Positions 2,608 through 11,643 of a stretch of DNA of 64,000 nucleotides are shown here, piece after piece. A program made the translations under genes and the position numbers. Location of the stretch: the NCBI GenBank assembly GCA_963832165.1, contig CAWHTE010000001.1:224001-288000 (forward strand), in the 5' to 3' direction. Below the pieces are notes generated by a model. It saw nothing but the letters and a program-made list of their open reading frames with translations. It had not been told where the DNA came from and made no database searches. Numbering within the stretch: position 1 is the first letter of the stretch; every line of letters begins with the position of its first letter. The DNA comes from an uncultured delta proteobacterium. Lineage in GTDB: Bacteria > Myxococcota_A > UBA9160 > SMWR01.

Positions 2608-3027
2608 CTAGGATTTCGCCTTCTTCGAAGGCTTCGACTTGCGAGAGCTGTTGAGCGCGACCGCCTGGCGAACGAGCGCCTTGAAGGCGGACGCGTCGAC
2701 TGAGTCTCCTTCGTGGATGTCGATCGCGCGGCGTACTTTCCCGTCGAGACTCGCGTTGAAGAGACGGGCCGGATCCTTCAGGGACGCGCCCTTGGCGAAG
2801 GTGAGCTTCACGACATTCTTGTAGGACTCGCCAGTGCAGAGGATGCCGTCGTGCGACCAGACCGGAGTGCCCATCCACTTCCACTCCTCGACGACGTCCG
2901 GGTCTGCCTCCTGGATGAGCTTGCGCATCCGGCTGAGGGTCTCCCCGCGCCAGTCCCCGAGCTCGGCGATTCTCTTCGAGATGAGCCCCGATGCCGACTG
3001 GCCTCGGCTCGCGCCCGACTTCTTCAT
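2608..3027 (-). CDS. DUF1801/YdhG-like protein
   Basis: [16 protein letters not shown]...[11 protein letters not shown]...[15 protein letters not shown] family pattern. Confidence 0.9.
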
Positions 3028-3068
3028 GCTTTCATCCCTCTACCAGTTTCGGGAAGGCGCAGGACGAT

Positions 3069-3087
3069 CTGCAGCGCACCGTTAGGC
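3069..3087 (-). repeat. attC remnant (R''-spacer-L'' arm only)
   Basis: Minus strand GCCTAAC-ggtgc-gctgcag, 11 bp after a stop codon; no partner arm. Confidence 0.7.
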
Positions 3088-3098
3088 GGAAGGTCGCC

Positions 3099-3381
3099 TC
3101 AGCCGAGACCAAGGCGCTCGTGCCACTCAGCGATCGACTCCTCGGGAAAGTGCGGATACAGCTTGTCCTGAGGATCAGACCGGACTTGCACCCAGGAGGC
3201 CTTCGAGTCGAGCAGGAGATGCGTCCGCTCCGGGGGGACAGGAAGCGGGGTATCGATGGCGGATGCGAGCGGGTGCACCAACTCGGGCCAGCGAGGATCC
3301 CACATCCAGAGGTGGCTTCCACAGAGCGCGCAGAAGTGGCGCCTCCCGGGACTCTGGTGGGGAGCAGACTCACCCGGATAC
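3099..3381 (-). pseudogene. GFA/CENP-V family protein, 5'-truncated
   Basis: SPGRRHFCALCGSHLWMWDPRWPELVHP...SAID motif; N-terminal half replaced by IS3 sequence. Confidence 0.8.
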
Positions 3382-4317
3382 TTCCTGAAAAAAGCGCTGG
3401 CCTACTTCGCGGACGACCAGAAGTGAAGTTCCGGTTCGTCCAGGAGCACCGGGAGACCTTCCGGGTAGGCATGATGTGCAAGGTCCTGAAGGTCTCCCGC
3501 AGTGGATACTACGCCTGGCGCGAGCGTCAGCCAAGTCGACGCGAGCGCGAAGATCGTGTGCTCGCCGGACGGATCCATGCGATCCATCGCGAGAGCCGGG
3601 AGACCTACGGCTCGCCTCGGATCCATGCCCGATTGCGTCGGGAAGGAGAGACGGTGGGTCGCCATCGCGTGGCCCGTCTGATGCGCTGGGAGGGGCTGCA
3701 GGGCTGTGCGAAGCAGCGCTTCCGGCGAACGGCCACCGTGCGCGCGGAGCTTCCGGCTGCACCGAATCTCTTGAACGGTAATTTCTCTGCGAAAGTGGCC
3801 AATCGGGTCTGGGTCGCCGACATCACTCAAGTGCGAACCCGCGAGGGTTGGCTCTATCTCGCGATCGTGCTCGACCTCTTCTCCCGCAAGGTCGTCGGTC
3901 ACGCCAGTGCCTCGACCCCGCGCCAGGAGCTCGCTCTCGAAGCTCTCGATCGAGCCCTTCGCATCCGCCGACCCCAACTCGGAACTGATCCATCACAGCG
4001 ATCGCGGTGGGCAGTACCTGAGTGCCGAATATCAGGACCGTCTGGATCGCCACGGCATCGTCTGCAGCATGAGCCGTCCAGGTCGATGCGCGGACAACGC
4101 CGCGGCCGAGAGCTTCTTCCACACGCTGAAGACGGAGTGGCTCTACCACTTCGACTTCTTCACTCGCGAAGAGGCTCGGCTGGCGATCTTCGACTACGTC
4201 GAAGCCTTCTACAACCGGAACCGCTTGCACTCCAGTCTCGACTACCACTCACCCGAGGAGTATGAAACACTGCACAATGCTGCTTGAAACCCCGTCCACT
4301 TTATCGGGGCAAGATCC
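3382..4317 (+). mobile_element. IS3-family element, 5'-truncated, orfB frameshifted
   Basis: orfA tail FLKKALAYFADDQK*; A6G slippery site at 3388-3394; orfB DDE motifs [23 protein letters not shown]; right IR-like end ...gtccactttatcggggcaagatc. Confidence 0.9.
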
Positions 4318-6136: not shown

Positions 6137-6152
6137 GCCGCCTAACGGAGCT
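6137..6152 (-). repeat. attC remnant (R' box only)
   Basis: Minus strand ctccGTTAGGCggc directly after the stop of the DUF4440 gene. Confidence 0.65.
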
Positions 6153-9637: not shown

Positions 9638-9657
9638 GTCAACAGACTGCTCTCGCC

Positions 9658-9726
9658 GCCCAACGGATCGGCATTGAGCTGCCGGCCGCCCGGAAGGACC
9701 AGGAGACCCGCCCCATCTTATTAGGC
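9658..9726 (-). repeat. attC with altered left arm
   Basis: Minus strand GCCTAAT-aagatg...gcagctcaatgccgatcc-GTTGGGC; L'' not recognisable. Confidence 0.7.
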
Positions 9727-10269
9727 AGCGCCCTCGGGCATGAGCGCTGTATGCATGAAATCGGTGCCGCCAGGGTCATGGCCGAGCTGGAAGAGCAGCG
9801 CCGTGACTTGGCCACGGTGGTGTGTCTGGTGATTGAAAAGGTGCGCGACCACGTGCCAGAACGGCACCACCATGCTCTGGCCGGTGGAACGAGCATACGA
9901 AAGGTCGCTCTCGAGAATGTCGGGGGTAAGCTCAGCCACCCACGATTGGATCGCAGCATCGGTTTCGCGACGCTGCGCGGCCAGCTCCGGGAAGCTCTCG
10001 TATAGGACTTGTGCGAGCGACTGGAACTCGAAGACCAGTGGGGTCTTCTCGAGGGAGCGAAACCCATGAGGATGCTTGCTGATCCGACCCAGCCATATGC
10101 GATCCGTCAGGAGGATGTGGTTGAGCGTGCCGTGGATGGACCGAAAGAATGCACCCATGTCTCGGTTCCGCTCCTCCTCCGACAGGGACGATGCCAGGTC
10201 ATAGAGTCGGCCGTTGAACCAGGCGTTGTACTGTGCGAATCGGTAGAACTGCTTGAGATGGAGATTCAT
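9721..10269 (-). CDS. DinB/YfiT-family damage-inducible protein
   Basis: YNAWFN, FFRSIHGTLNHILLTD and HLFNHQTHHRGQ motifs; ATG at 10269. Confidence 0.93.
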   Translation of the reverse strand: MNLHLKQFYRFAQYNAWFNGRLYDLASSLSEEERNRDMGAFFRSIHGTLNHILLTDRIWLGRISKHPHGFRSLEKTPLVFEFQSLAQVLYESFPELAAQRRETDAAIQSWVAELTPDILESDLSYARSTGQSMVVPFWHVVAHLFNHQTHHRGQVTALLFQLGHDPGGTDFMHTALMPEGAA

Positions 10270-10301
10270 GCTCGATCCCTGGCGCCGCCTTGTATCTACC
10301 C

Positions 10302-10465
10302 CGTGGCCGTGCCGACGATCCGACCTAGCATGATCACGCTTCCGGGGAGACCGTTGCTGCCTGAAGCCACGAGCTTGTCCGTTAGATGGGTCCCCCGCCC
10401 TCTTCGCCCATGCCGTGGAGGATCCGAGGCCCGAGAGCCTGCATCCACAAGGTCGGTAGGCGACG
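10302..10465 (+). ncRNA. predicted bridge RNA
   Basis: 5' hairpin at 10302-10338; internal loop with gctgcct and tccgttag matching the target; second loop with gaggatc and acaag matching the circle junction. Confidence 0.8.
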
Positions 10466-10510
10466 GTACAGGGTCGGGGAACCCGGAAGCAGCGTAACAC
10501 GGGGGGACGC

Positions 10511-11497
10511 ATGCGTGGAGCCTGCTATGTGGGAGTCGATGTCAGCGCGGACGAGATCACGGTGGCGATCGAGGGGCGTGCCGAGCGGGTCACACTGGCC
10601 AACGATATCGAGGGCCACGAGCGACTGATTCGGTTGCTGACCCGCCGCGGAAAGGCCGCGCGCGTGTGCCTGGAGGCGACGGGCATCTACCACCTCGACT
10701 TGGCATTAGCGCTGCATCGAGCGCGAGCGATCGACGTGATGGTGGTGAACCCCTCGGCGGCGCGGGACTTCGGACGCGCGCTGCTGCAGCGCTCGAAGAC
10801 GGATCGCGTGGACGCAGGGGTGCTGCTGGAGTTTGCGCAGCGAATGCCTTTCGCATCGTGGCAGCCGCCCGCGCCCGAGATCCTCGATCTACGGGCGATC
10901 GTCCGTCGGATCGGCGCCCTCACCGTCACGCGAACCCAGGAGCGCAATCGACTTCATGCGGCGGGCCGCTGTGCGGAGCTCACCGAAGCGATCGCCTGGG
11001 ACATCGAAGCGCACCTCGAGCATCTCGCGCAGAGCCTGGAGCGTTTGCAGCAGCAGGCGCTCGAGCTCGTGCAAGCGCACCCCGAGCTCGCGCAACGCTT
11101 CGAGCGGCTCATTTCGGTCCGCGGCATCGCGACCACCAGCGCACTGCGCATTCTCGCCGAGCTCGCCGTGCTGCCCGCCGACATGACCCCTCGTCAGTGG
11201 GTCGCTCACGCGGGACTCGACCCGCGTGCGCACGACTCGGGAACCTCGCTGCACAAGCCCGCCCGGATCAGCAAGAAGGGAAACAGTCACCTGCGAGCGG
11301 CGCTCTACATGCCGGCGATGGTCGCAGCCCGTGAGGAGCCCAGTGTGAGGACCTTCTATCAGAAGCGCCTCGCAGGAGGACTCAAGCCCATCCAAGCCCT
11401 GGTCGCCGTAGAGCGAAAGCTCCTGCATAGCATCCACGGAATGTGGGCGAGCAATAGCAACTTCGACGGCGAGAAATTCTGCGCGATGAGCGCTTGA
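10511..11497 (+). CDS. IS110-family DEDD recombinase/transposase
   Basis: YVGVDVS, CLEATG, KTDRVDA, catalytic-Ser motif DSGTS and SKKGNSHLRAALYMPA. Confidence 0.96.
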   Translation: MRGACYVGVDVSADEITVAIEGRAERVTLANDIEGHERLIRLLTRRGKAARVCLEATGIYHLDLALALHRARAIDVMVVNPSAARDFGRALLQRSKTDRVDAGVLLEFAQRMPFASWQPPAPEILDLRAIVRRIGALTVTRTQERNRLHAAGRCAELTEAIAWDIEAHLEHLAQSLERLQQQALELVQAHPELAQRFERLISVRGIATTSALRILAELAVLPADMTPRQWVAHAGLDPRAHDSGTSLHKPARISKKGNSHLRAALYMPAMVAAREEPSVRTFYQKRLAGGLKPIQALVAVERKLLHSIHGMWASNSNFDGEKFCAMSA

Positions 11498-11514
11498 CAG
11501 CGCAGAGAGGATCT

Positions 11515-11643
11515 AACGGATCGCGGTTCAGCTCTGCCGCCCCGCGTACCTCCGAGTATCAATCCAGCGGCCGCCGCGCGTCAATCACCGACCGGCGGCC
11601 GCCGACATGCCCCGATCAAGGTGCGTCGGGGTCAGATAGAGCC
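11515..11643 (-). repeat. long attC body lacking R'' (remainder of the IS110 target site)
   Basis: Minus strand gctctatctgaccccg...cggggcggcagagctgaac-cgcgatcc-GTTAG; internal gcggccgccg/cggcggccgc palindrome. Confidence 0.75.

Follow-up and report, generated by a model that had tools for sequence, protein, structure and literature searches.

An IS621-like insertion sequence with predicted RNA guides for the R' end of integron attC sites in an uncultured delta proteobacterium

Introduction

What leads an insertion sequence into one particular end of an integron recombination site, and does the element itself carry the instructions for that choice? The question is raised by an IS110-family element in a 64,000-nt stretch of DNA (the window, in whose coordinates positions are given below) from an uncultured delta proteobacterium of the GTDB lineage Myxococcota_A; UBA9160; SMWR01 (assembly GCA_963832165.1, contig CAWHTE010000001.1, positions 224,001 to 288,000 of the forward strand). 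Integrons are the main gene-capture platforms of bacteria, and the R' box of their attC sites has the consensus GTTRRRY. A reading of the window made from its letters and open reading frames (the sequence-only reading) had proposed that the left end of the element encodes a bridge RNA, and that the element homes to integron cassette junctions as an RNA-guided recombinase. From the analysis described here, we conclude that the element is very probably an intact IS110-group (IS621-like) insertion sequence with guides aimed at the R' end of attC sites.

Results

An intact element within the R' box of an attC-like arm

The element spans positions 10291-11512 (1222 bp) and has a CT dinucleotide at each side (10289-90 and 11513-14). 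It consists of a 220-nt non-coding left end that begins TGTATCT (10291-10510, + strand), one open reading frame (ORF), and a 15-nt right end that finishes GAGAGGAT (11498-11512, +), followed by the right copy of the CT core (11513-11514, +). Excision in silico rejoined gccgc-CT-aacgga, the R' end of an attC-like arm. This agrees with the earlier proposal that deleting the element restores an arm repeated across the array: further copies of the arm (aacggatcgcggttcagc), each with two mismatches, lie at 2102 and 8216, giving three matches where 0.16 were expected, and none of 100 shuffles reached three. The 33-nt repeat family of the window also takes in 9651-9683. When read on the cassette strand, the element splits the R' box as GTT-AG-GC, 13-17 nt upstream of the next start codon. 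At the left junction, the flank GCCGC and the left CT core (10284-10290, +) carry the GC and AG part of the R' box GTTAGGC on the cassette (-) strand, and the start codon of a DinB-family ORF lies 13 nt downstream.

A second copy, 100% identical, resides on another contig of the same genome in a clean two-armed attC, and its rebuilt empty site forms an imperfect hairpin of 134 nt that is bounded by RYYYAAC and GTTAGCC. Both copies are flanked by CT on both sides, and in both the cassette genes are antisense to the transposase gene. The presence of two 100% identical copies in different attC-like sites of one genome hints at recent movement of the element. The remaining two matches of the own-genome search were short and 71-82% identical. 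The ends of relatives, obtained by comparing copies within multi-copy genomes, start with TGTAYNT at the left and finish with GAGKAT at the right, with a dinucleotide on either side, and these definitions agree with the boundaries read in the window.

The ORF (10511-11497, +) encodes a 328-aa protein carrying the Pfam domains DEDD_Tnp_IS110 (RuvC-like; E = 2.9e-18) and Transposase_20 (E = 9.8e-19), and it scores 188.9 bits with the NCBIfam model NF033542 (cut-off 140). It aligns over the full length with the IS621 protein (35% identity, E = 1e-52), and all five catalytic residues of IS621, given as D11, E60, D102, D105 and S241 (PMC11208158), are kept as D10, E55, D98, D101 and S243. Judged by its sequence, the protein is an IS110-family DEDD transposase. 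The best matches in a search of plasmid records were two unnamed IS110-family transposases of 45-46% identity (on an Acidisarcina plasmid and a Salinibacter plasmid), and the closest match bearing a specific element name was IS621, again at full length (35.5%, E = 6e-41).

Guides that covary with target flanks and element ends

Four short stretches in the left end, all on the + strand, match the flanks of the target and the ends of the element. In the target loop, a small hairpin separates two such stretches: the 5' one corresponds to the left flank and core, and the 3' one, read as its reverse complement, gives the core and right flank. The left target guide, GCUGC plus the core CU (10356-10362), has one mismatch, T versus C, with the flank gccgcCT of its own copy, which would be a U:G wobble with the bottom strand. 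The right target guide, UCCGUU plus AG (TCCGTTAG; 10378-10385), is the exact reverse complement of CTaacgga. In the donor loop, the corresponding partners are the element's own right end and left end: the left donor guide GAGGAUC (10418-10424) is like the right end GAGGAT plus the core C, and the right donor guide ACAAG (10447-10451) is the reverse complement of CT plus the TGT of the left end. The four guide stretches and two hairpins of the sequence-only reading were all found exactly where it had placed them.

Covariation of guides and targets among homologues had been set beforehand as a check on that reading. Of 7999 candidates scored in a protein search, 3176 were homologues at E <= 1e-3, mostly metagenomic. 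A scan of species-representative genomes yielded 478 relatives, and the analysis was carried forward with the best 80 loci. Their hosts include Myxococcota, Acidobacteriota/Thermoanaerobaculia, Gemmatimonadota, Bacteroidota, some Gammaproteobacteria and others. The main guide set comprised 57 insertions with both flanks in 21 guide classes; L039, L046 and L054, in which the left end was mis-set, and L028 and L037, whose right flank lies beyond the contig, were dropped from the count. Left guides matched their flanks at 120 of 147 positions versus 80.5 after shuffling, and right guides at 127 of 147 versus 84.3; with the core left out, the values were 80 of 105 (versus 47.3) and 85 of 105 (versus 45.9). 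None of 20000 permutations reached any of these figures. The outcome was repeated with a held-out set of 20 loci, 16 of which could be parsed while four had no recognisable right end: the right guides, in 13 classes, matched at 52 of 74 positions versus 24.9 shuffled (0/20000 permutations).

Examples of re-aimed guides are GTTTCCT with the flank gtttcCT, TTGGACAG with CTgtccag, and CCCTGAAG with CTtcaggg. The left donor guide occurs in three forms, GAGGATC, GAGTATC and GAGAATC, each of which fits its own right end, and in a Rhodothermales lineage the core is changed from CT to AT in all four guides. Across the relatives, the guides thus covary with target flanks and element ends. On a rapidly built tree with 56 distinct proteins, in which the attC label applies to 24 rows versus 31, the label requires six changes, and well-supported branches force at least two of these; re-aiming has therefore occurred repeatedly.

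Some insertions have unequal junction dinucleotides. L014, L017, L019 and L056 have AT at the left, with CT at the right in the three that are readable (the right end of L056 was not found), L089 has TT and CT, and L033 has CT and CC. The left dinucleotide equals the core of the left target guide in these insertions, and the right one equals the core of the right guide in L014, L017, L019 and L089. A target core unlike the donor core, followed by inheritance of one daughter strand, would produce such junctions, and they hint at a natural tolerance of core mismatches.

An RNA fold conserved among left ends

The alignment of 27 distinct left ends gave a consensus of two internal loops, each with a small hairpin cap. 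In the element of the window these are the target-binding loop at 10349-10392 (closing stem 10349-10352/10389-10392, capping hairpin AAGC/GCUU at 10364-10376) and the donor-binding loop with its closing helices at 10394-10478 (helices 10394-10401/10470-10478, 10404-10408/10459-10463 and 10411-10413/10456-10458, capping hairpin AGGC/GCCU at 10427-10440), all on the + strand. Compensatory changes were found in 14 of the 28 consensus pairs. Paired cells amounted to 97.6% versus 90.8% in shuffled alignments, and the covariation score was 0.292 versus 0.162, neither of which was reached in 500 shuffles; when the partners were slid by 1-3 columns, paired cells fell to 20-55%.

A covariance model of the 148-position core (R1), built from the aligned left ends and run over 25 sources, matched the left end at 10339-10486 (+) with 168.5 bits. 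Among held-out relatives it matched 20 of 22 loci (E <= 1.4e-13), in every case upstream of the transposase gene and in the same orientation, and in the two loci that it missed the left parts are truncated. Across the window's own genome it matched only the two copies. With IS621 it gave a weak match in the donor-loop region (E = 0.082). Of the fold drawn in the sequence-only reading, then, the two internal loops are upheld and the 5' hairpin is not: at 10302-10338 (-10.5 kcal/mol) it is equalled by 47 of 200 shuffles, and the region is unaligned among the relatives, with no conserved stem. The covariation supports the presence in the left end of an RNA that, like that of IS621, has one loop for the target and one for the donor; by analogy with IS621, we infer that this RNA would be produced.

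The target as the R' end of attC sites

We rebuilt the empty sites of 13 insertions. Eleven of these sites close at AAC, nine of which end in a GTTRRRY-like box, and L023 and L024 gave nothing. At right junctions, AACG follows the core in 34 of 75 readable insertions. In the window's own genome, arms were sought with a 20-of-29 consensus scan, which gave 161 matches versus 107 in reversed or complemented controls, and only scores >=22 and clusters were used. Eight of the 18 arms tested there fold as two-armed hairpins of 117-167 nt that run from RYYYAAC to GTTRRRY and have bulged bases, and the target-like arms form six clusters with a cassette-like spacing of 0.4-2 kb. A loose 8-nt motif was rejected for the arm search as too unspecific (291 matches genome-wide).

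Relatives with attC-type guides were examined for an integron integrase, which was found above the curated cut-off in nine of ten genomes (5/5, then 4/5). Copies in three relatives lie 1800, 2472 and 2748 bp from the integrase, as confirmed by overlapping sequence. Provided that the contig numbers correspond, copies in a Rhodothermales genome would be 4.1 and 13.7 kb away. Taken together, these results support the assignment of the target as the R' end of attC sites.

Alternative explanations

A number of observations weigh against a guide RNA aimed at attC, and they are considered here together with the alternatives on which they bear. With respect to the RNA, a search of Rfam at the gathering threshold, and also at E <= 10, returned nothing in the element, and the whole left end alone folds no better than its shuffles (z = 0.09). 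No sigma-70-like promoter was seen on the + strand of the integrated copy, which leaves expression from the integrated state unexplained. RNA-library contigs of three metatranscriptome studies cover 10339-10610 (the RNA-encoding part together with the 5' part of the gene) with 0-8 differences; they inform on neither transcript ends nor transcription, because a DNA contig breaks at the same place. With respect to the guides, matching is looser at the left flank than at the right, and some insertions fit at 1-3 of the five non-core positions. In the class GCTGCCT/TCCGTTAG, among the insertions listed (8 of its 11), L025 fits at 1/5 and L010 at 3/5, and in the class GCTGTCT/TCCGTTAG L015 fits at 1/5.

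It could be argued that the matches in the left end are features of the DNA, namely protein-binding copies of end and target sequences, rather than guides in an RNA, and the unremarkable fold of the single sequence and the uninformative RNA-library contigs would suit this explanation. However, compensatory changes keep four helices around the matches, which DNA binding sites would not need. In addition, the two guides of each loop correspond to opposite strands, one to the top and one to the bottom, which is also the case in IS621, whose mechanism has been solved (PMC11208158). We therefore give the DNA-feature explanation very little credence and retain RNA guides as our reading; support for the structure comes from covariation and not from energy.

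With respect to the target, the occupied site in the window is a truncated attC. Its R'-side arm (11515-11610, - strand, in which 11515-11520, aacgga, form the right target flank) agrees at 89 of 95 positions with the initial 98 nt of a two-armed site that is 165 nt long and lies on another contig, and then stops beside a Mur-ligase gene. Neither this site nor the other arms of the window fold as two-armed attC sites, and a strict scan of the window for RYYYAAC...GTTRRRY with a fold gave no convincing site. No integron integrase above the cut-off was found in the element's own genome, which is 89% complete (best score 72.6 bits versus 265). An integrase was also present in three of five genomes of relatives with other guides, and the presence of an integrase (9/10 versus 3/5 genomes) was rejected as an uninformative discriminator of guide class.

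These observations would be accommodated if the element were RNA-guided and the repeat targeted here were an extragenic palindrome outside integrons, like the repetitive extragenic palindromic (REP) sequences that many IS110 elements target. No integrase was detected in this genome, the arms of the window do not fold as two-armed sites, and other members of the clade target repeats that are not attC. However, the hairpins formed by 8 of 18 arms in the genome have the boxes, bulged bases and clustered spacing described above, the occupied arm matches one such two-armed site at 89 of 95 positions, relatives with the same guides lie 1.8-2.7 kb from integron integrases, and the flanking ORFs are small, unrelated and co-oriented. 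We thus regard a non-integron repeat as improbable, if somewhat less so than the DNA-feature explanation, and prefer attC as the target. The truncated site, the arms that do not fold and the lack of a detected integrase therefore point to a decaying, integrase-less array in which the R' arms are still good targets. The proposal of homing to cassette junctions accordingly stands as far as the attC R' target is concerned, given the empty-site folds and the integrases of relatives; for the genome at hand it is to be corrected by the undetected integrase and the truncated occupied site.

Comparison with IS621 and with the attC-targeting IS1111 elements

We read IS621 from a plasmid record, in which it lies between atcaggc-CT and CT-acgca and has the ends TGTATT... 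and ...ACAGTAT. Its left end contains, in this order, a left target guide with CT, a hairpin, a right target guide ending in AG, the donor guide GACAGTATC, a hairpin, and CAAG. This order, along with the covariation, bears out the IS621-type architecture of target and donor loops that had been claimed for the element of the window. The two elements are alike in protein architecture, in the five catalytic residues, in having a long left and a short right end and a CT core, and in the succession of a target loop and a donor loop, each with one guide like the top strand and the other its complement. The donors are AGTAT-CT-TGTAT in IS621 and GAGKAT-CT-TGTAT in the clade, and thus the donor of the clade is almost that of IS621. 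They differ in that the proteins share 35% identity, that model R1 detects IS621 weakly and in the donor loop only, and that the conserved 5' stem-loop was not found in this clade. They also differ in the target, which for IS621 is atcaggc-CT-acgca, a REP-type repeat, versus the attC R' end for this element.

The founding papers on attC-targeting insertion sequences (ISKpn4, ISPst6, ISPa21 and ISPa25) are said to be Tetu & Holmes 2008 and Post & Hall 2009. In the literature searched, which did not extend to those papers and the supplements, attC-targeting insertion sequences are described only as members of the IS1111 group. We considered whether the element is one of these, with a guide RNA (seekRNA) downstream of the gene. 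It shares with them the kind of target, one attC end, and the wider family (PMC11187229, PMC11616780), and they, too, show site-specific insertion in a single orientation and an RNA-guided DEDD transposase. In contrast to this element, the published ones have subterminal inverted repeats (7-17 bp), a short left end and a seekRNA downstream of the gene (PMC11187229, PMC11208160, PMC11616780, PMC11089894). The non-coding region here is upstream of the gene, 220 nt versus the 15 nt of the right end, and model R1 matches only upstream. The search for terminal inverted repeats found none beyond chance, the longest within the terminal 60 nt being 5 nt, a length equalled in 1893 of 2000 shuffles. The sequence-only reading was therefore right to set the long left end and the absence of visible subterminal repeats apart from the IS1111 layout. 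According to published criteria, a long left end, a short right end and an RNA upstream of the gene belong to the IS110 group (PMC11208160, PMC11187229).

IS621, the closest named match among plasmid records, is itself an IS110-group element. It was the sole named reference in the tree and plasmid comparisons, and IS1111 was set apart by the published layout criteria. Two Klebsiella plasmid matches were examined for a named IS1111 element in attC, and neither is in an integron. We conclude that the layout supports placement of the element in the IS110 group, as opposed to the IS1111 layout of published attC-targeting elements, and that its membership in the latter group is very improbable. Group IIC-attC introns (PMC3001079) are likewise mobile elements that home to attC; they are retro-elements, and their mechanism is wholly different.

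A predicted junction promoter and a proposed mechanism

A predicted promoter, TTGACA-17 nt-TATCTA, is present only across the junction of right end, CT and left end that would form in an excised circle. Its -35-like half (TTGACA, 11494-11499, +) overlaps the stop codon, and its -10-like half (TATCTA, 10293-10298, +) is assigned by analogy with IS621, in which a promoter is also split across the circle junction (PMC11208158). TTGACN occurs at a fixed place of the junction in 21 of 27 distinct end pairs. The left-end half had been set wrongly for three of these, with consequences for the -10 half alone. Contigs from sequencing runs, which cover small shares of the stretch, revealed no joints, circle junction, empty site or usable transcript ends.

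The mechanism that we propose follows that of IS621 (PMC11208160, PMC11208158). The left end would be transcribed into a bridge RNA with two internal loops, and the element would be excised to a circle in which the ends are joined as GAGGAT-CT-TGT. Within the target loop, pairing would join the left guide to gcYgc-CT on its bottom strand, and the right guide to CT-aacgga on its top strand; the donor-loop guides would pair likewise with the joined ends in the circle. The recombinase, with its DEDD and Ser residues, would then exchange strands at the CT core. As a result, the element would interrupt the R' box GTT-AG-GC in a single orientation, opposite to that of the cassettes, at a distance of two bases from the point at which an integron integrase would cut, and the junction promoter would turn on the RNA and the recombinase after excision. 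The boxes at both ends of the attC hairpin are near-identical, apart from the three bases that follow AAC, which are GGA where the element has inserted. These bases lie within the right guide, which would explain the choice of end and orientation.

The surrounding array and further occurrences

The ORFs of the window array are of the cassette type and encode DUF6713, AveC-like, SnoaL, ferredoxin, glyoxalase, MAPEG, GNAT and DinB proteins. Those for DUF6713, glyoxalase, MAPEG, GNAT and DinB are on the - strand, and R' arms lie 5-15 nt upstream of four of the starts (DUF6713, glyoxalase, GNAT and DinB). The DinB-family ORF, which is the cassette gene next to the invaded R' box, occupies 9721-10272 (-) and thus runs opposite to the transposase gene. 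The array contains a second mobile element at 2991-4265 (+), with a 424-aa ORF carrying HTH_21 and rve (an IS3-type integrase core). Positions 6137-6149 are an unoccupied perfect match to the predicted 13-nt target (GCCGCCTAACGGA), one of two in the genome, the other being on contig C4, and the last 10 nt of the predicted target are matched at eight genomic sites. Additional groups of attC-like arms, with cassette-like spacing, occur in the same genome at C2 366193-369905, C2 471812-475131, C4 694861-695677, C5 197468-198009 and C7 816633-817534, and look like attC clusters without an integrase.

The right junction (11507-11520), read on the cassette (-) strand, is GTTAGAT, which still fits GTTRRRY, and the attC upstream keeps a consensus R' box. 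The next cassette would thereby come to include the element. The GTTAGAT box is probably inherited and not an adaptation (at most a fortunate fit), because relatives outside attC sites and IS621 share the letters of the right end.

Among the relatives, a distant lineage of the clade with 16 copies in a Methylophagaceae genome (L057-L087) has multiplied in another repeat, which ends in CCGAC-CT or TCCAAC-CT. Two left-guide variants occur there side by side, and the TCCAAC variant (L078, L080) is in TCCAAC flanks. L048, L050 and L075 are on contigs of 1.4-1.7 kb binned as Methanosarcinaceae/ANME archaea, and the elements belong to the lineage that includes the Methyloprofundus copies (L052, L053, L082). 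On the tree, L075 falls with the Methyloprofundus copies, and L050 differs from L052 at only a few left-end positions. These occurrences could reflect mis-binning or transfer between partners.

Discussion

The bridge RNA mechanism and the habit of invading attC sites are each known. Their combination in the IS621 branch, and the breadth of that combination, were not encountered in the literature searched, within the limits given above. Until now, invasion of attC had been associated with IS1111-branch elements, which use a 3' seekRNA, whereas the element described here belongs to the IS621-type branch, with a differently placed RNA. Both branches reach attC through differently placed RNAs, and they therefore appear to have converged independently.

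A wider interpretation can be put forward tentatively, and we think it less likely to be right than wrong. The clade, found across Myxococcota, Acidobacteriota, Gemmatimonadota and Bacteroidota, would be a specialised integron parasite whose target loop tracks lineage-specific R' boxes, with CT, CC and AT cores suggested by guides and junction dinucleotides, and which has been re-aimed to other repeats at least twice. The GTTAGAT box at the right junction, beside an intact attC, would let the integron integrase move the element and the following cassette as a unit, so that the element would spread by cassette exchange.

IS621-type bridge recombinases are under development as genome-writing tools. 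The relatives provide a natural series of re-aimed guides, in which guide classes number at least 21, the donor guide occurs in three states and the core is CT, AT or TT. This series, together with the unequal junctions, bears on the tolerance of mismatches at the core and the left flank. For the integrons themselves, elements that invade attC reshape cassette arrays, and can freeze an array or fuse its cassettes.

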